Positions 26,304 to 39,919 are shown, counted from the stretch's first letter. The stretch: DNA of 64,000 nt from Thermoanaerobaculia bacterium (GCA_963816185.1 CAWFJJ010000030.1:1-64000), one strand, 5' to 3'. Notes: generated by a model from the sequence alone, not told the origin. Program-made: numbers and translations.

Positions 26304-27677
<1,374 letters not shown>

Positions 27678-32929: not shown

Positions 32930-33445
32930 TTAGAACACCAATGCTCCCAAAATCCCTGAGCCAATGATGATTAATGATGGATCGATTTTGGTAAAGGTCA
33001 GCAGCGCGAAGCTGATCACGGCGATGCCTGTCGTGGTCTGGTTAATCAAGGAGCCTTGGCCCAAAAAGACGAGCACCGCAATGAGCAGTCCCACCACTGC
33101 CGGCTTGATTCCTGCGAAACCGGCCCTTACCGCCCAGAGCTCTTTATAACGGAGGTAATACTTGGTAACCAGGGTGACAATAATGACGCAGGGCAGATAA
33201 CTGGCGAACATGGCCACCAGGGCCCCCACCAGGCCGCCCACCTTAAACCCCAAAAAGGCATTCATCACCGTAAGCGGCCCAGGGGTCACCTGGCCGATGG
33301 CAATGGCGTCGATGAATTCCTTATTGCTGAGCCAATGATAATGATTGACGAATTCTTGCTGCAGCATGGGGATCATGGCGTAGCCGCCGCCGATGGTCAG
33401 GGCGTTGGCAATGAACAGGATGGCGGCCATTTTCAGCAGGACCAT
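32930..33445 (-). CDS. chrA: Chromate transporter, short-chain half
   Basis: IGGGYAMIP, GQVTPGP. Confidence 0.9.
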   Translation of the reverse strand: MVLLKMAAILFIANALTIGGGYAMIPMLQQEFVNHYHWLSNKEFIDAIAIGQVTPGPLTVMNAFLGFKVGGLVGALVAMFASYLPCVIIVTLVTKYYLRYKELWAVRAGFAGIKPAVVGLLIAVLVFLGQGSLINQTTTGIAVISFALLTFTKIDPSLIIIGSGILGALVF

Positions 33446-33976
33446 TTAATCCCTCCGGTACAGGACCAGCCCCAAAGCCCCTGCGGCCAGGAGGATGCCG
33501 ATAGGGTTAAGTTTAAAGATATCCAGGGCCAGAAAAGCGCCCACAGCCAGCGCCGCGCTACGGTAATCCGTCACCAGCCTGACAAACATTTTATAAACGA
33601 TGGAGGCCAGCAAACCCACCACCGCCGCGGCCACCCCTTTCATCACCGATTGCAGCAGGGGGTTGTCTTTCATATAGAGATAAAAGGCCGCCAGCAGAAT
33701 AGCCAGCACCGTGCCGGTAAAGGCCTGGCCCACCGTGGCGGCCAGCGCCCCCCACAATTTCCGCAGTTTGTAGCCGATGCAAATGCCGGTGTTGACTATA
33801 GGCGGGCCGGGGGTCATCTGGCCGATGGCAAAGCTCTCCACGAATTCATCGTGGGTAATCCACTTGCGTTTATCCACCAATTCCCGTTCAAAGAAGGCAA
33901 CCATGGAATAGACGCCGCCGAAAGAGAAGCTGCCGATTTTGAGGAAGACCAGAAAAATCTTTTTTAGCGATAACAT
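33446..33976 (-). CDS. chrA: Chromate transporter, short-chain half
   Basis: FSFGG, GQMTPGP. Confidence 0.9.
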   Translation of the reverse strand: MLSLKKIFLVFLKIGSFSFGGVYSMVAFFERELVDKRKWITHDEFVESFAIGQMTPGPPIVNTGICIGYKLRKLWGALAATVGQAFTGTVLAILLAAFYLYMKDNPLLQSVMKGVAAAVVGLLASIVYKMFVRLVTDYRSAALAVGAFLALDIFKLNPIGILLAAGALGLVLYRRD

Positions 33977-34099
33977 GATGTTCTCCGCTCAATTAACCAT
34001 TCATCAGCATTGCTGAATTAAAGGCGGCATAGACCCTTGGCCGGAAACTGCTTCCCCCAGCCGCTCCCGGAAACGGCCTGAGGTTAGTAACGGATCGGT

Positions 34100-34262
34100 T
34101 GAGCGGCGCTGCCGGGCTGGTGAAACCGAGGAAACTCACCTGATAAGGCAGCAGCAGAAAGGCCCCGGAGACTCCTCCCCTGGAGGTGCAGATGGACACC
34201 CCCATGGCGCTGAGGGGCGGGATAAGCGGGTTGACCTCTACCCCCGAGACGGGAAAGAGCCT
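34100..34262 (-). pseudogene. N-terminal remnant of a TauE/SafE family gene
   Basis: LFPVSGVEVNPLIPPLSAMGVSICTSRGGVSGAFLLLPYQVSFLGFTSP; no proper start codon and the frame then decays. Confidence 0.6.
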
Positions 34263-34467
34263 CCCCAGAGCTTCCTTGTGAAATTTTTCCCAATATTAAG
34301 CCAAATTGAGAGCGCCTGTCAAATAAATTCTTCTCCAGGCGGCCTGAGGGTGAGAAGAAATTTTTTACCGGTATTGTTTAGTAATTATAGTTAGTTAATC
34401 GAAAGGGTCGCCAGCCGTATAAAAATTTGCACCGGAACCGCTGCCAGGGCGTGAGGGGTGATAAGGA

Positions 34468-34524
34468 TAACTTATTGAAAGTTAAGGCAAAAAAACAATT
34501 GCGCAATTTGGCATGCCCAATGCA
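34468..34524 (+). promoter_or_regulatory. sigma54 promoter with upstream IHF-like site
   Basis: TTGGCATGCCCAATGCA (GG-N10-GC, 34508-34524); TTTCAATAAGTTA on the minus strand at 34468-34480. Confidence 0.75.
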
Positions 34525-34534
34525 TGTAATATTA

Positions 34535-34647
34535 GCAAATACGAACCAAGTTAAGGATTCCCCCATCCCCCCCTTAAGCTAAAGTTCGTATCCATTTCTC
34601 CTTTCACCCACTGGCCGGGTCTCCCCCACTCGGCCAGTACCTTTTTT
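34535..34647 (+). ncRNA. Candidate sigma54-dependent sRNA (about 113 nt) with C-rich loops
   Basis: Stems ATACGAAC/GTTCGTAT and TTAAGG/CCTTAA with a C-rich loop, CTCCTT linker, terminator ACTGGCCGGGT/ACTCGGCCAGT followed by T6. Confidence 0.65.
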
Positions 34648-34725
34648 GGGGGAAGTTGGGCAGTTGAGCTTCAGGAGCTGGCGGCAACCCCTTAACTTAA
34701 GCAATACCAAATGGTCTAATTAGTC

Positions 34726-35076
34726 ATGCAGGGCATGCGGCGCCATCATCTTCTCCACTGGGCAGTAATTTTCTGCTCCCTGCTGCTACCCCTGACCGCG
34801 GTAGCCGGGCCCGCCTTGCCAAACCCGGGCTCGTCCGGCTGCGGTATGGTTGCCTGCCATTGCCCCTGCTGCCAGCCTGGCAACAAGCCCCAGTGCCACA
34901 AATCGTCGCCTTCGCCTTGCGGCTGCACAAGCCTGCCCGGTCTTCAAGCCAGCCGGTTCACCCCCGAGGGTGAGGGGGGCACAGTTTATCAGCCGCTATC
35001 GCTAAACCCGGCGCCGAAACTGTTTATTCTCGCCATCTATCATCCGCCCAAGAATTTTCTCCTGTCTTCACTGTAA
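34726..35076 (+). CDS. Cys-rich leader-type ORF ending IYHPP (DUF2946-like)
   Basis: Signal/TM, CGMVACHCPCC..C..CGC, C-terminal AIYHPPK. Confidence 0.6.
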   Translation: MQGMRRHHLLHWAVIFCSLLLPLTAVAGPALPNPGSSGCGMVACHCPCCQPGNKPQCHKSSPSPCGCTSLPGLQASRFTPEGEGGTVYQPLSLNPAPKLFILAIYHPPKNFLLSSL

Positions 35077-35204
35077 TGCGGCAATTTTTTTCACCTGCTG
35101 ACGCCAGGGATTATATGTCCCGGCGCCACTAATGATCACCTGCCTCTCCAAGCGGAGAGGGGGCGGGGTTCGCCTCGTCTAAACCAAGAAATGGGAGAAA
35201 TAAT

Positions 35205-35558
35205 ATGTCTCAAAAGAGCAAATTGCTGGTTTGTTTGGCCCTGATCCTGATACTGAGTCCGGCCTCCGGAGCCTTAGCGAGAGGCATGGGCGGTGGTGGC
35301 GGCATGGGCGGCGGCGGGGGCATGGGCGCCGGTGGCTCCATGATGTCCGGCAACATGGGCAATATGAACAACCAGGGCATGGATCAGAATCAGATGAACC
35401 GGCAGAACATGGGCAACATGAATGGCATGAGAATGAATAATCAGGGACAGGCGCCGGCCGGTACCTGGGTTCCCAATGGCAACATGGACAACAGGGGAAA
35501 TATGGGTAACGGCAATATGCCTGCAAACGGGATGGGTTCTGGGCAAGGGCCGAATTAA
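35205..35558 (+). CDS. Secreted Met/Gly/Asn-rich low-complexity protein
   Basis: SD GGGAGA, signal peptide ending ALA, MGGGGG and NMGNM repeats. Confidence 0.7.
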   Translation: MSQKSKLLVCLALILILSPASGALARGMGGGGGMGGGGGMGAGGSMMSGNMGNMNNQGMDQNQMNRQNMGNMNGMRMNNQGQAPAGTWVPNGNMDNRGNMGNGNMPANGMGSGQGPN

Positions 35559-35689: not shown

Positions 35690-38326
35690 TTACTCCCAGG
35701 ACTCCTCGATCTTGGTGAGCACCGCCAGTTTTCCCGGCTGGACCTTGCGATAGACCTGGGCCGGCTCTTTCTGGTGTCCGTCCACGTAAAGCAGGTCGTG
35801 CTCGATGGAGATGCCGAAGAGCCGTTCGTTTTCCTGGAGGTAAGGCAGGATCAGGTCCCAGTCCGCCGCGCTGAGGTCGACGATCTCGCCGCCGTTTAAC
35901 TGCTCGTCCACCACCTGCTGGTAGGGGTCGCGGATATAGAGGGCGCCGCCGGAGGCCAGGGAAAAGAGGTTGGAGCCGGGGTACGGGGTGCGCTGCGGTT
36001 TGAGACGACCCCGGGGGTCGTACTCCAGGCCGTTGACGATGACGAAGCCGCCGTCTTTGAAGACGTCGCCGGCCATGAAGGATTCGGCCAGGAAGTCCAG
36101 GGCGGTGCCGTTGATCACCACCCGGGGGCGGCCCACGGCGTTGATCAGGGGCCGGCCGGCGGCGTTGCCCAGGATGTAGACCTCGCCGCCCTTGGCGCCG
36201 TACATGAAGGTCTGGCCCACGTCGCCGTGCACCACCAGCTTGCCCCGCTTCATGATCTGGCCCAACTGGTCCTGGGCGTTGCCGTGGATCTGAATGCTCA
36301 TGCCGTCGATGCCGGAGGCCAGGTAGTCGCCGGTGCTGCCGTAGGCGTCGATCACCACCCCGTCGGTGTTGAGCCCGAAGCCGCAGCCCAGGAAGCGCTG
36401 CCCCCGGTAACCGTAAGTGAGGAATTGCCTCCAGCCCAGCTTGAAGGCCTGACACATGAGCCGGGCGTCGCAGTCATCCCCTTCCGGGGGAAAATCAGCG
36501 GCATCCAGGATCAGGATGGCGTCGGCCTGCTGGGGCGCCGGCAGTTGCTCCCGGCTGTCCCAATCAACCCGGCGGTAGCGGCTGCTATGCTTTTCGCCCA
36601 CGGTCGGGGTCGCCTTCAGGATAAGGGTCAAGGTCTCCATGATGAGATGCAGGAGGTTGCTGCGCTTCTTGTCGCCCGGGTCGTAACGGCGGTCCAACAG
36701 CAGGGTCAGACCGTTGATGGCCGCGGCCTTGAGGGCGTCGCCCCTGGCGGCCTGGTCGCCGACGGCCGCCAGGAACTCCCGGAAGGTGGCGTAGGAGATG
36801 GTGGCGGCCCGCTCCCGGATCGCCCGGTAGAGTTGCTCCCCGCTCTGGTCCTTAAGACAAGTGCTCACCAGGCGCACCACCTCGTCGTCTTCCTGGAGGT
36901 CGATCTCCAGCACCGTGCCGTTCCAGGGCCGCTGATGCCAGGGCACGGTCTTGGGCTTGCCGAACTTGTCGTGGCAGGAAAGCACCCGGCCACCGTTTTT
37001 CGGTTCCAGGGAGAAGATAAAGGAGCCGCCGTCGGTGGCGCTGCCGCCCCGGGCGTTCCAGTAGAGGTCGGCCACCGGGCAGACCCGGGGGTCTTCCGCC
37101 GCCAGACTGGCCAGGGTGGCGTCGATGGCCTGCTTTTCCGAGCAGACCAGGCCGATCTGCACCTCGCCGTCATGCAGGGCAAAGACCTGGGGCCGCAGCA
37201 TGGAGGTGTCGGTGATGCCGATGAGGTCGAAGCTCTTCCGCTCCGGGTCGTTCCGGGCAATGATGAAGAACCAGGGGCCGTCGGGCGAGCCGTGGATGTT
37301 GGCGGCCTGGAGCTGCCGGTAGACGTGCTGCCGCTCCGGCGGCAGCAGGTCGAAGTCCCGCTCCGTGGTGGGGGCCATGGACTCGATGACGTATTCCAGG
37401 GGATAGCCGTAGAGCCGGTGCCACAGGTCGAAGGTGAGCACCGCCACTTCCGTGTCCGTCAGGAACTGGGGATAAAAATGGCGCTGGCTCAGGTATTCGC
37501 TCACCGAGAAGTAATTGGCGAAGTCGCCGTTGTGTACCAGGGCGGTGTTGAGCGCCGCGAAGGGGTGGGCGCCGCCGGGGTGCCACACCCGGCCCCGGGT
37601 AGGATAGCGCTGGTGGGCGATCCAGATATGGGCCTTGAAGTCCAGCAATTGGTAATAATAGGCCGCTTCTTCGGCATAGCCCACGATCTTCAGGATCAGC
37701 ATGTTCCGGCCCTGGGACATGACGAAGGCCTTCTTCTCGCCCAGGGAGGCGTAATAGGCCTCGTTCAGCTTGTAGCAGTTCTGGGCCACATACTCGTCTT
37801 CCACCTTGCGCCAGGCCAGGCCGTAAAGCTTGTGCTGCTGGATGAAGTGCTGCAAAACCTCGGGCTTGACCCGCACGAAATATTGCCAGACGTCCGGCGG
37901 CTTGACCACCAGGCCCTTGATGTCCTGCCAGTTGTCCACGGTGGGCTGGCGCCGGGCGTGGTCCACCCGAAACACCGGGGTGATGAACTGGGCCTCCACC
38001 TTGGCGCGAGCCTCGGTATCCAGGTAAGCGACCTGGATGAGATAATCGTCATCCAGGATCTCCTGGGAGACCCCGAGGGTTGCCGCGTCCAGCCCCACCG
38101 CGGCGATACCGCCGCCCTTGCCGTTGCCCCGGTTGTGCATCTGGATGGAGGGGGTGACGATGTGGCGGCCGGCCACCGGCACGCTGGCGGCAAAGCCCGT
38201 GACCCCGCAGCCGCCTTCGTCCGCGGCCTTCTGGATACGCCCCGCCGGATAAGGCGAAGTGAAATCGCGGCGGGTGTCGAGGAGGGCCAGACCGGGGTGA
38301 TTATGCAAGTTGCGCTTAGACTTCAT
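35690..38326 (-). CDS. gltB: Glutamate synthase subunit: class II glutamine amidotransferase fused to GXGXG domain
   Basis: EGG-CGV N-terminal Cys, AHQRYPT, GAHPF, HNGD, DGP; GQRFLG, GDYLAS, GNAAGR repeats. Confidence 0.88.
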   Translation of the reverse strand: MKSKRNLHNHPGLALLDTRRDFTSPYPAGRIQKAADEGGCGVTGFAASVPVAGRHIVTPSIQMHNRGNGKGGGIAAVGLDAATLGVSQEILDDDYLIQVAYLDTEARAKVEAQFITPVFRVDHARRQPTVDNWQDIKGLVVKPPDVWQYFVRVKPEVLQHFIQQHKLYGLAWRKVEDEYVAQNCYKLNEAYYASLGEKKAFVMSQGRNMLILKIVGYAEEAAYYYQLLDFKAHIWIAHQRYPTRGRVWHPGGAHPFAALNTALVHNGDFANYFSVSEYLSQRHFYPQFLTDTEVAVLTFDLWHRLYGYPLEYVIESMAPTTERDFDLLPPERQHVYRQLQAANIHGSPDGPWFFIIARNDPERKSFDLIGITDTSMLRPQVFALHDGEVQIGLVCSEKQAIDATLASLAAEDPRVCPVADLYWNARGGSATDGGSFIFSLEPKNGGRVLSCHDKFGKPKTVPWHQRPWNGTVLEIDLQEDDEVVRLVSTCLKDQSGEQLYRAIRERAATISYATFREFLAAVGDQAARGDALKAAAINGLTLLLDRRYDPGDKKRSNLLHLIMETLTLILKATPTVGEKHSSRYRRVDWDSREQLPAPQQADAILILDAADFPPEGDDCDARLMCQAFKLGWRQFLTYGYRGQRFLGCGFGLNTDGVVIDAYGSTGDYLASGIDGMSIQIHGNAQDQLGQIMKRGKLVVHGDVGQTFMYGAKGGEVYILGNAAGRPLINAVGRPRVVINGTALDFLAESFMAGDVFKDGGFVIVNGLEYDPRGRLKPQRTPYPGSNLFSLASGGALYIRDPYQQVVDEQLNGGEIVDLSAADWDLILPYLQENERLFGISIEHDLLYVDGHQKEPAQVYRKVQPGKLAVLTKIEESWE

Positions 38327-38605: not shown

Positions 38606-39919
38606 CAGGCCTGTCCGGCAGGTAATTTGCATGGGTCAGAGGGCCGGGACATTAGCGGGCACCACCTAAGTTGAATAAAGTTAATTGGCCATAATCAGGT
38701 GGATCAGAGATTCGTGGACAGAGTAAAGCCCAGAGATTGCAGCGCTCCATGATCAGGTTTTTGACCAGTCGGGTGAGGTCCAAGATGGACCAACCCGCCC
38801 AGCTCCGCACCTTCAGCCACAGGAGCAGCAGGTAAGCGATCATGGCGGTCCAGATTTGGATGAGCACGGCATTCTCTGAGGTTCCATAAAACGCCTTAAT
38901 CTTGAGGTTTTGCTTGATCCAGCGGAAAAACGTCTCGATCTGCCAACGCTGCCGATAGAGATCGGCCACCGTTTGGGCGGGTAGGTCCGGCAGGTTGGTC
39001 AGAAACACATATTCCTTGCTGTCTGGGTCCCGATAATGCACCAGGCGCAAGGTTTCGGGATAGTGACGCCGGCTGTAAGGAGTACTGAGCCGGACGAGCT
39101 GATCGGCCGATACCGGCGAGCCGGACGAGCCGGGCCGCTCCTCGAGGACTCGATAATGGATGTGGCGGGGCAGCCGGGTGACAAACCCCACCTCGCGGCG
39201 GTGCAGGGAGTTAAGCCAGGCAAAATCGACATAGCCCCGGTCCAGCAGCACCAGATCGCCGGGGGCGAAGTCCAGGCGTCGAGCCACCTCCAGTTCATGG
39301 ACCTGGCCGGCGGTAACCTGCAAGTCCTGGGGAGCGCCCCCCGAGTCCAGGAGGACGTGGAGTTTGACGGCGTTTTTGCTGGGCTGGAAATTGGCCCAGG
39401 GAAAGAGACTGGCGCAGACCGGCACGTAGGTGGCATCCAGGATCTTCACCCGCCGGGCCTCGGACTGGCGGCCGGCTTCGGCCTGAAAGCGCGCCAGCAA
39501 TTTCTCGTAGGTCTTCTGAAAGATGAGGGCGGGGCGCTTCTCGTTGGCTTCGGCCAGGGTGGAACGCTTGGCGGGGGTGAGGCCCAGATGGTAGAGCTTC
39601 TGCCGATGCCGGCCCAGGCTAAAGACCAGGTCACGCAGGCTCTTTTTGCCGCTCAATTGGGCATAGAGCATGGCCACCAGTTGGGACCAGTAAGATAATT
39701 TTCGGGGCTTGGGACCCTGCCAGGAATGAGTCTCCACCTGGTGCTCCAAAATATGTCTCGGGAGAAGTTGTAGCATGTTACCCAGAACGGTGTTATTATG
39801 TGCCATAAGCCCCTAACCCCCTTCGATGCTTGGTTTTTTCGGCAAAAAAATTATAGCATCTATGGGTCGTTTTGGGGCTTTTTCTTTTAAATCCAAGTGT
39901 TGTCTACCGGACAGCACTG
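38606..39919 (-). mobile_element. IS4-family insertion sequence with 9-bp target duplication
   Basis: Imperfect TIRs CAGGCCTGTCCGGCAG / CAGTGCTGTCCGGTAG; DR GGGTTAGGG at 38597-38605 and 39920-39928. Confidence 0.9.
38652..39806 (-). CDS. IS4 DDE transposase (DUF4372 + DDE_Tnp_1)
   Basis: SLRD, RSTLAEAN, LDAT, KLH, DRGY, YRQRWQIETFFRWIKQ. Confidence 0.95.
   Translation of the reverse strand: MAHNNTVLGNMLQLLPRHILEHQVETHSWQGPKPRKLSYWSQLVAMLYAQLSGKKSLRDLVFSLGRHRQKLYHLGLTPAKRSTLAEANEKRPALIFQKTYEKLLARFQAEAGRQSEARRVKILDATYVPVCASLFPWANFQPSKNAVKLHVLLDSGGAPQDLQVTAGQVHELEVARRLDFAPGDLVLLDRGYVDFAWLNSLHRREVGFVTRLPRHIHYRVLEERPGSSGSPVSADQLVRLSTPYSRRHYPETLRLVHYRDPDSKEYVFLTNLPDLPAQTVADLYRQRWQIETFFRWIKQNLKIKAFYGTSENAVLIQIWTAMIAYLLLLWLKVRSWAGWSILDLTRLVKNLIMERCNLWALLCPRISDPPDYGQLTLFNLGGAR

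Follow-up and report, generated by a model that had tools for sequence, protein, structure and literature searches.

What is the product of a locus that carries an enhancer-like site, a sigma54-type promoter and an intrinsic terminator around about 113 nt in which no sizeable plus-strand open reading frame (ORF) was found? The locus occupies positions 34418-34647 of the window, by which we mean the whole 64,000-nt stretch of DNA analysed here, the first 64 kb of contig C30 (C30:1-64000) in an assembly assigned to a Thermoanaerobaculia bacterium (GCA_963816185.1). A preliminary description drawn from this DNA had proposed an undescribed, orphan, sigma54-driven small RNA (sRNA) that represses translation in trans by pairing with Shine-Dalgarno (SD) sequences and is controlled by an enhancer-binding protein (EBP). 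Comparison with related genomes indicates that the interval is very likely a complete, self-contained small non-coding RNA gene, and we hold with strong confidence that it specifies a conserved non-coding RNA with sigma54 promoter architecture. The word orphan has to be given up: judged by its matches to a covariance model, the RNA is one diverged paralog of a multi-copy family that spans the order Desulfobaccales.

The RNA gene and its family

The features of the locus, from the enhancer to the end of the terminator, are as follows.

34418-34432, plus strand: putative enhancer (upstream activating sequence, UAS), TATAAAAATTTGCAC, an imperfect palindrome of the type TAhAA-N4-TTGhAC
34465-34481, plus strand: IHF-like AT-rich site, GGATAACTTATTGAAAG, read from the sequence, between enhancer and promoter
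34509-34524, plus strand: sigma54-type -24/-12 promoter, TGGCATGCCCAATGCA, with GG at 34510-11 and GC at 34522-23, 10 nt apart
34535-34647, plus strand: predicted sRNA of about 113 nt, its 5' end placed from the promoter spacing and its 3' end at the T-run
34539-34591, plus strand: 5' hairpin, nested stems with a C-rich loop, from the fold
34539-34546 (AUACGAAC) and 34584-34591 (GUUCGUAU), plus strand: outer stem, from the fold
34551-34556 (UUAAGG) and 34572-34577 (CCUUAA), plus strand: inner stem, from the fold
34557-34571, plus strand: C-rich 15-nt loop, AUUCCCCCAUCCCCC, from the fold
34592-34609, plus strand: unpaired CU-rich linker of 18 nt, CCAUUUCUCCUUUCACCC, an anti-SD mimic and proposed seed
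34610-34638, plus strand: terminator hairpin with an 11-bp stem and the loop CUCCCCC, from the fold and the terminator scan
34642-34647, plus strand: T6 tail, which completes a terminator unit at 34610-34647

The IHF-like site, the GG-N10-GC promoter and the ORF-poor stretch of about 113 nt lie where the preliminary description had placed them. The nested stem, C-rich loops, unpaired linker and terminator with T6 that it drew are reproduced by the minimum free energy fold of 34535-34647 (-32 kcal/mol against a shuffle mean of -15.5; z -6.16; 0 of 200 shuffles as good), and the enhancer-like site at 34418-34432 is an addition to its features. Taken singly, two of these elements are at the level of chance: base composition would give the strict promoter pattern alone about 10 times in the assembly, where it is seen 6 times, and the terminator scan alone gives 1 site in 33900-35200 against a shuffle mean of 2.2. 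The locus stands above chance because promoter, stems, linker and terminator are conserved together in 83 of the 83 genomes of the order. The RNA also appears to be undescribed, as had been proposed. A scan of the 64-kb window against Rfam 15 gave 0 matches at the gathering score, the 4 matches obtained at E values up to 10 in 34200-34900 (E 3.7-9.1) do not overlap the RNA, and no description of this RNA family was found in the open literature.

The order in question differs from that of the assembly. To judge from composition and sequence identity, the window lies in a fragment of Desulfobaccales DNA to which a foreign genome has been joined. GC content is about 59% over the first ~120 kb of C30 and 67% in the remaining assembly, and the 878-aa GltB-like protein encoded beside the RNA gene (35690-38326, minus strand) is up to 94% identical to proteins of Desulfobaccales metagenome-assembled genomes. 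When an 18-kb piece spanning the GC shift was compared with relatives, C30:112001-121400 matched the Desulfobaccales genome G043 at 92-93% and a second, G041, at 78-87%, and C30:121433-130000 matched a congener of the assembly at 83-90%. The junction is thus bracketed at 121400-121433, outside the window; GC past it is 67-70%, and no tRNA was found there. Most simply, the join is an assembly or binning chimera. When 40 genomes related to the assembly were searched for the DNA of the RNA locus, there were 0 matches, a result that is uninformative because the first ~121 kb of C30 come from a different organism; within its own assembly the RNA occurs as a single copy. Because C30 is chimeric, comparison or annotation of the window guided by the taxonomy of the assembly misleads, and this is a practical lesson of the locus.

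Among Desulfobaccales the RNA is readily recovered. By blastn it was present in all five genomes searched, with 1-2 full copies each, some of them in tandem, and in one syntenic locus (L011) it aligned at 82.5% over 120 nt between flanks that could not be aligned. Homology with the closest relative, G043 (34275-34657, 88%), ends 10 nt beyond the T-run. An alignment of nine copies without their promoters (A2) served as the basis of a covariance model, R1, which comprises RNA columns only and no promoter columns; its three helices were supplied by hand, and an automatic MAFFT/RNAalifold alignment had missed the outer stem, the 3' arm of which was shifted. R1 scores the window copy at 113.1 bits (34532-34647) and finds matches in all 83 genomes of the order, at 1-7 copies each and often in tandem, where every copy has its own promoter and its own terminator. 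In an even sample of the phylum (151 genomes), strong matches were confined to 5 genomes of that order, and weak matches (33-35 bits) appeared in 4 genomes outside it. Three of the loci from outside the order (L133, L135 and L136) are tandem pairs too, each copy with its own TGGCA-N7-TGC promoter. Within the order there is in addition a short form of about 80 nt, which dispenses with the long 5' hairpin and retains the 5' GGUUACCCCC, the linker and the terminator.

The structure is supported by compensatory change. Re-alignment of 56 R1 matches to the model (A3) left 96.3% of cells paired, with 24 of 26 pairs changed on both sides against 5.0 in shuffles, a degree of covariation unmatched in 500 shuffles (0/500); when the partners were slid out of register, pairing fell to 23-44%. 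Among the 56 members, compensatory changes affect 9 of 9 pairs in the outer stem, 5 of 6 in the inner stem and 10 of 11 in the terminator, the stem cells of which are paired at 98.5%. Two circumstances reduce the weight of these figures: A3 is fitted to the model, which inflates the pairing counts, and the genomes are mutually related, which makes counts across them not independent. Three unpaired stretches, by contrast, do not vary in the nine copies of A2: the C-run of the loop, UUUCUCCUUU in the linker and CCCCC in the loop of the terminator. A check of covariation across relatives had been named beforehand in the preliminary description, and promoter and stems alike prove to be conserved in Desulfobaccales. 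Comparison thus establishes a family and its structure, from the sequences of its members.

Promoter, putative enhancer and candidate activator

Because R1 has no promoter columns, the sequences upstream of its matches provide an independent test of the proposed sigma54 dependence. In 54 of the 56 matches a promoter with at least 9 of 11 positions of TGGCAC-N5-TTGCA and with GG-N10-GC lies at a fixed distance upstream, against 2.1% of random 85-nt windows from the same loci that score at least 9/11; the window copy itself matches at 9 of 11. One of the two exceptions is cut by a locus end, and the other scores 8/11. The putative enhancer recurs as well. With the locus-end-cut member left out, 43 of 55 members have the motif TAhAA-N4-TTGhAC at a distance of 94-130 nt before the RNA start; among random 230-nt windows from the same loci, 216 of 5000 (4.3%) contain it. 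The motif precedes long forms, short forms and one member from outside the order (L136). That last locus carries a perfect palindrome, TACAAAAATTTGTA, at the enhancer position. Between enhancer and promoter, sites resembling ATAACTTATTGAAAT occur in most of the 11 copies inspected. In the window the likeness to an IHF site is a putative match to the consensus, WATCAANNNNTTR, on the opposite strand and with 1 mismatch. On this comparison of upstream sequences, the sRNA is very probably sigma54-dependent, as the preliminary description had supposed.

The partners that such a promoter calls for are encoded in the relatives. The gene for sigma54, rpoN (PF04552), is present in five of five related genomes, and each of these has 18-27 genes for EBP-like activators. 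Within 1.5 kb on either side of the long-form loci no real activator gene was found; a GAFTGA-like match at L124 was set aside, the C-terminus of its product being unlike that of an EBP and giving no match to other EBPs. The situation is different in three of the four distant relatives outside the order (L133-L135), where the RNA lies directly downstream of an NtrC-type gene, and for the short form. For the latter a second model, R2, was used at a cutoff of 77 bits, which retained 64 rows from 63 genomes (rows that score less are long forms); the positions of its matches were compared with those of orthologs of the EBP encoded 2 kb from the short form in G041 (query L141:6591-7940; 75 rows of at least 67% identity kept). 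Short form and EBP ortholog share a contig in 46 of the 63 genomes, 1.5-8 kb apart (median 2.4 kb) and, in 37 of these 46, on the same strand; they are on different contigs in 14, and 3 have no ortholog above the threshold. This linkage is, by gene order, conserved synteny among related genomes, and not proof of regulation.

For the window itself the candidate is less clear. No ortholog of the linked EBP was found in the assembly that holds the window, where the best match has 44% identity. An NtrC-type response regulator with REC, sigma54-interaction and HTH_8 domains is encoded 7 kb upstream of the sRNA (26304-27677, plus strand). Its product shares 42% identity with the short-form-linked EBP, and 51-53% with those encoded beside the distant relatives. 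We did not adopt it as the cognate activator: these identities are at the usual level of paralogs and the gene is no ortholog of the linked EBP, a comparison that is not decisive. In G043, too, there is a gene for an EBP-like protein, some 7 kb away from the orthologous sRNA copy. For the proposed control by an EBP, then, comparison across the order supports the architecture, with a putative enhancer in most members, rpoN in all five genomes and linkage to a candidate activator in most genomes with a short form; the activator that acts on the window copy, and its signal, are matters of inference.

Proposed pairing with ribosome-binding regions and a porin leader

The invariance of the loop and linker suggests that these are the parts by which the RNA acts. 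The 16S rRNA of G041 and of G059 ends at its 3' terminus in GGAUCACCUCCUUUCU, which has 8 nt, CUCCUUUC, in common with the invariant linker, and because of this shared sequence the linker can pair with SDs of the GGAG type. The exposed anti-SD linker of the preliminary description is thereby borne out in relatives. A search for exact 12-nt complementarity found 10 sites outside the sRNA genes in 5 genomes against 1 for a reversed control. Two of the 10, in G082 and G043, fall in the same leader, GGAAAGGAGAAAUUGGU...UUUAAGGGGGGAAUGAUG, before a gene for a porin-like protein; the remaining matches include a MucR-like gene, a small Cys-rich ORF and a gene for a sugar-nucleotide enzyme. The porin-like product (P0001) has a signal peptide and a porin-like sequence without a Pfam match, and homologs of its gene occur in 62 of the 83 genomes. 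G043 additionally has a porin paralog with internal stop codons.

Leaders of the porin-like gene carry two elements that stand out from other leaders and that are complementary to the two invariant segments of the RNA. From 30 loci, 7 of which gave none, 24 leaders were obtained. The block GGAAAGGAGAA, to which the linker is complementary, is present exactly in 16 of the 24 and with at most 2 mismatches in 20, against 7 of 392 control leaders. A run of at least 5 G within 22 nt of the ATG is found in all 24 porin leaders and in 9 of the 392 controls, and the two features occur together in 20 of 24 against 0 of 392. A further conserved block, GGAAGGAGGUGGG, lies upstream of both sRNA-complementary sites in the porin leaders (L172:1467-1540, minus strand; L180-L209).

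Duplex energies between the loop-to-linker segment of the RNA and leaders from -70 to +15 agree with these counts. With the long copy of G041 the porin median is -40.9 kcal/mol against -19.2 for 351 controls, of which 1 reaches the porin median; with the window's own RNA the corresponding values are -39.7 and -19.5, and 7 controls reach the porin median. The start region of hisG, GGAGGUAUAUGGGGGUGG, is among the strongest control duplexes, and hisG is a possible second target by this measure. The linker site alone, at about -48 to -29, has a median of -20.6, and shuffled linkers give a median of -12.1 and, as the best of 40, -16.4. The C-loop site alone, at about -17 to +5 and thus over the SD and AUG, has a median of about -20.9 (-20.85). 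The earlier proposal of pairing with SDs therefore finds, by complementarity, a concrete candidate: the SD and AUG of the porin leader face the C-loop, and the sequence upstream of them faces the linker.

No match to the Hfq family (PF17209) was found in the five related genomes; of 14 named genomes searched as a control, 5 gave one. An Hfq-independent mode of action would fit this result, and also the strength of the predicted C:G-rich pairing at the two sites.

Taken together, these observations suggest the following mechanism. An NtrC-type EBP bound to the palindromic site ~90 bp upstream would, through a bend at the IHF-like site, contact sigma54-RNA polymerase on the -24/-12 promoter. The transcript would begin near 34535 and end at the intrinsic terminator, an RNA of ~113 nt with two invariant unpaired segments. 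The first comprises the C-rich loop and the 3' strand of the inner stem, and the second is the CU-rich linker that copies 8 nt of the 16S anti-SD tail. Independently of Hfq, both segments could base-pair in trans to ribosome-binding regions that are rich in G or in GGAG. The best candidate target is the mRNA of the porin-like outer-membrane protein, in which the linker would pair with the conserved GGAAAGGAGAAA block at ~-48 to -29 of the leader and the C-loop with UUAAGGGGGGA across the SD and AUG, at ~-17 to +5. The ribosome would be occluded, and less porin would be made when the signal of the activator is present; further targets besides the porin are to be expected on this scheme. The complementarity itself is established by comparison, and expression and the direction of regulation are inferred. 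Overall we lean, with some reserve, towards translational repression through base pairing to SD regions, including that of the porin leader.

Several observations weigh against this reading. Exact 19-nt complementarity is confined to the sRNA genes. Relaxed to as many as 3 mismatches, the 19-nt complement still recovers mainly these genes, the other matches being about as frequent as for the reversed-pattern control. The best of 40 shuffled loops (-20.95) equals the median observed for the C-loop (-20.85), and because shuffled loops reach the observed value the C-loop site reflects composition, a C-run facing a G-run, more than order. Within the linker site there is a constant mismatch (GAGAAAyUGGU against ACCAwUUUCUC), and no sRNA-mRNA covariation was found between the RNA and the porin leaders. 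Around the linker site the porin leader could itself fold into a hairpin, GGAAAG/CUUUCC, which offers a different possible reason for the leader's conservation. As controls, 351-392 leaders were taken from loci collected in the analysis and not from whole genomes. The window's organism is represented by only ~121 kb, which contain neither a porin homolog nor an ortholog of the linked activator; because neither is present there, target and regulator are drawn from relatives. A search for targets in the window's own 125 kb yielded only G-rich, mostly spurious ORF starts and no porin homolog. Finally, the sole match in an RNA run is a 171-nt soil metatranscriptome contig at 35297-35467 (1 mismatch), which lies off the RNA gene; a second public run, of unknown kind, contains DNA of the relatives.

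Some of these points are what one would see if a real sigma54-driven RNA served as a multi-copy decoy with anti-SD and C-rich elements, sequestering a CU-rich-RNA-binding protein or dampening strong SDs globally. Genomes do carry several copies, each RNA offers three unpaired C- or CU-rich elements, the linker copies the general 16S anti-SD and not a gene-specific sequence, and the pairing of loop and G-run is driven by composition. We nevertheless judge a decoy unlikely, since the porin leader keeps a linker match of 12-16 nt at 30-48 nt upstream of the AUG, which would be unexpected for a general SD, no candidate protein partner is known, and a CsrA-type sponge is ruled out because the loops have no GGA motifs. 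The RNA might instead pair with the porin leader and activate it, the linker binding the loop of the leader's GGAAAG/CUUUCC hairpin and thereby remodelling the leader or stabilising the mRNA. The linker site falls within this potential hairpin, where a duplex would not necessarily obstruct the ribosome, but the second site covers the SD and AUG (-17 to +5), an arrangement that represses in the cases known to us, and we consider activation quite unlikely.

Two further readings deny that the element is an sRNA gene of its own. Were it the 5' leader or attenuator of downstream genes (34726-35076 and 35205-35558 in the window, hisI-hisG elsewhere), one could point to the co-oriented ORF that begins 79 nt past the T-run, to hisI-hisG, co-oriented and downstream in about 20 of 37 loci inspected (long-form copies, L100-L132), and to the strong duplex at the start of hisG. 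The downstream gene varies, however: L011 has a gltB-like gene in convergent orientation there and lacks a co-oriented ORF, G043 has a gene for an Fe-S protein, and in about 7 loci a divergently placed zur-znuA pair (Fur-family, zur-like) lies beside the copy. Both small ORFs are absent from the G043 locus, in which homology stops shortly after the terminator, the ORF at 34726 has no SD, and the separate promoter and terminator of each tandem copy do not suit a leader; we regard this possibility as very improbable. Least credible of all is a small protein, or a chance meeting of motifs. Short ORFs do overlap the region (a 14-codon ORF on the minus strand; 34579-34710, minus, 43 aa; 34427-34582, plus, 51 aa), and promoter and terminator matches are each within chance, but indels of 1-2 nt between the copies in A2 argue against a coding frame, the stem substitutions are compensatory and without codon periodicity, and the whole architecture is conserved throughout the order.

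Related systems and neighbouring genes

The family is new within a known kind, the sigma54-dependent sRNAs. In Vibrio, the Qrr RNAs are several paralogous sigma54-dependent sRNAs of ~100 nt under one NtrC-type regulator, LuxO, with one copy linked to the regulator; they pair with mRNA leaders and need Hfq. The present RNAs differ in sequence, fold and taxon, gave no Rfam match and belong to genomes in which Hfq was not detected (five of five Desulfobaccales). For how the window RNA probably works, the closest analogue is RoxS/RsaE of Firmicutes, Hfq-independent sRNAs in which several unpaired C-rich regions pair with G-rich SDs and repress translation. RoxS/RsaE are not known to be sigma54-dependent, belong to another taxon, have central-metabolism targets and match neither the sequence nor the model. 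The enterobacterial MicF, MicA, RybB and OmrA/B act in trans on mRNAs for outer-membrane proteins by base pairing over or close to the SD and AUG, as is proposed for the window RNA; their transcription uses sigma70 or sigmaE, they require Hfq, and their sequences are unrelated to the present family.

Of the known systems Pxr is nearest in function and layout; it is the RNA that the preliminary description had given as sigma54-dependent and as having C-rich loops. According to published accounts, Pxr of Myxococcus xanthus and relatives is an RNA of ~108 nt with a predicted sigma54 promoter, beside the gene of a sigma54-dependent regulator (pxrR/nla19); it has a multi-stem-loop fold, some genera have tandem paralogs with their own sigma54 promoters, and the host lacks hfq (PMC5568312, PMC5684412). 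Its locus lies between pxrR/nla19 and a NADH dehydrogenase gene, it has three stem-loops and it belongs to Cystobacterineae (PMC5568312); it controls fruiting-body development, and its targets are given as unknown (PMC11928866). The sigma54 part of that statement thus holds, at the level of a predicted promoter, and the term 'C-rich loops' has 0 occurrences in the accessible part of PMC5684412. A second parallel is Dv_sRNA2, a sulfate-reducer sRNA of Desulfovibrio vulgaris, which lies downstream of DVU0679, the gene of a sigma54-dependent regulator that binds upstream of it, and the function of which is reported as unknown (PMC3333781). Its likeness to the present family is one of description. 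The distant relatives at L133-L135, directly downstream of their NtrC-type gene, repeat the arrangement described for pxr-pxrR and for Dv_sRNA2-DVU0679. The window RNA differs from Pxr, as the latter is described, in having two hairpins, one of them nested, instead of three stem-loops, and in a host from Desulfobaccales and not Cystobacterineae. It differs further in that the window copy has no adjacent activator gene, its neighbours being chrA and small ORFs, and even with E values as high as 10 allowed it matched no Rfam family, which covers Pxr should Rfam contain it.

A wider and decidedly speculative view, which we think has a minor chance of being right, is that these RNAs represent, in Desulfobaccales, an ancient class of sigma54-dependent sRNAs that spans the phylum, is linked to activator genes, mimics the 16S anti-SD tail and sets porin levels without Hfq. 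Relatives were seen in other orders of Desulfobacterota, and Dv_sRNA2 of Desulfovibrio and the myxobacterial Pxr might then be members too. If true, such a class would be the post-transcriptional arm of the role proposed for sigma54 in controlling the cell exterior. The more immediate significance is local. Desulfobaccales are widespread, mostly uncultured sulfate reducers and acetate oxidisers of sediments and wetlands, and to our knowledge almost nothing has been reported of riboregulation in them. For this family the anatomy is now defined, with an enhancer, an IHF-like site, a sigma54 promoter, two invariant seeds and a terminator, and a candidate activator and a candidate porin target are in hand. 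It is a well-supported addition to the short list of sigma54-dependent sRNAs (Qrr, Pxr, GlmY/Z, CrcZ), and an example of predicted Hfq-independent, C-rich, anti-SD-type pairing outside Firmicutes.

The genes around the locus offer some further observations. The two small ORFs downstream of the RNA gene (34726-35076 and 35205-35558, both on the plus strand) begin in the manner of signal peptides and lack Pfam matches. One abounds in Cys (CHCPCC, without an SD) and the other in Gly, Met and Asn, and they may, as a guess, encode metal-binding proteins. On the other side, 34084-34293 (minus strand) is a GC-rich segment conserved at 77-82% of nucleotides in six related loci, and it is the N-terminal remnant of a membrane protein that is present at full length (314 aa) in L011, where its gene is divergently placed; in the window it is cut short and followed by chrA. 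The protein resembles TauE/SafE by eye, and the piece has no Pfam match. The adjoining 32930-33976 (minus strand) holds two adjacent half-size chromate-transporter genes, of 171 and 176 aa and both PF02417, with 88-92% DNA identity to relatives. Beyond the gltB-like gene, a 384-aa ORF at 38652-39806 (minus strand) resembles an IS4-type transposase by eye.

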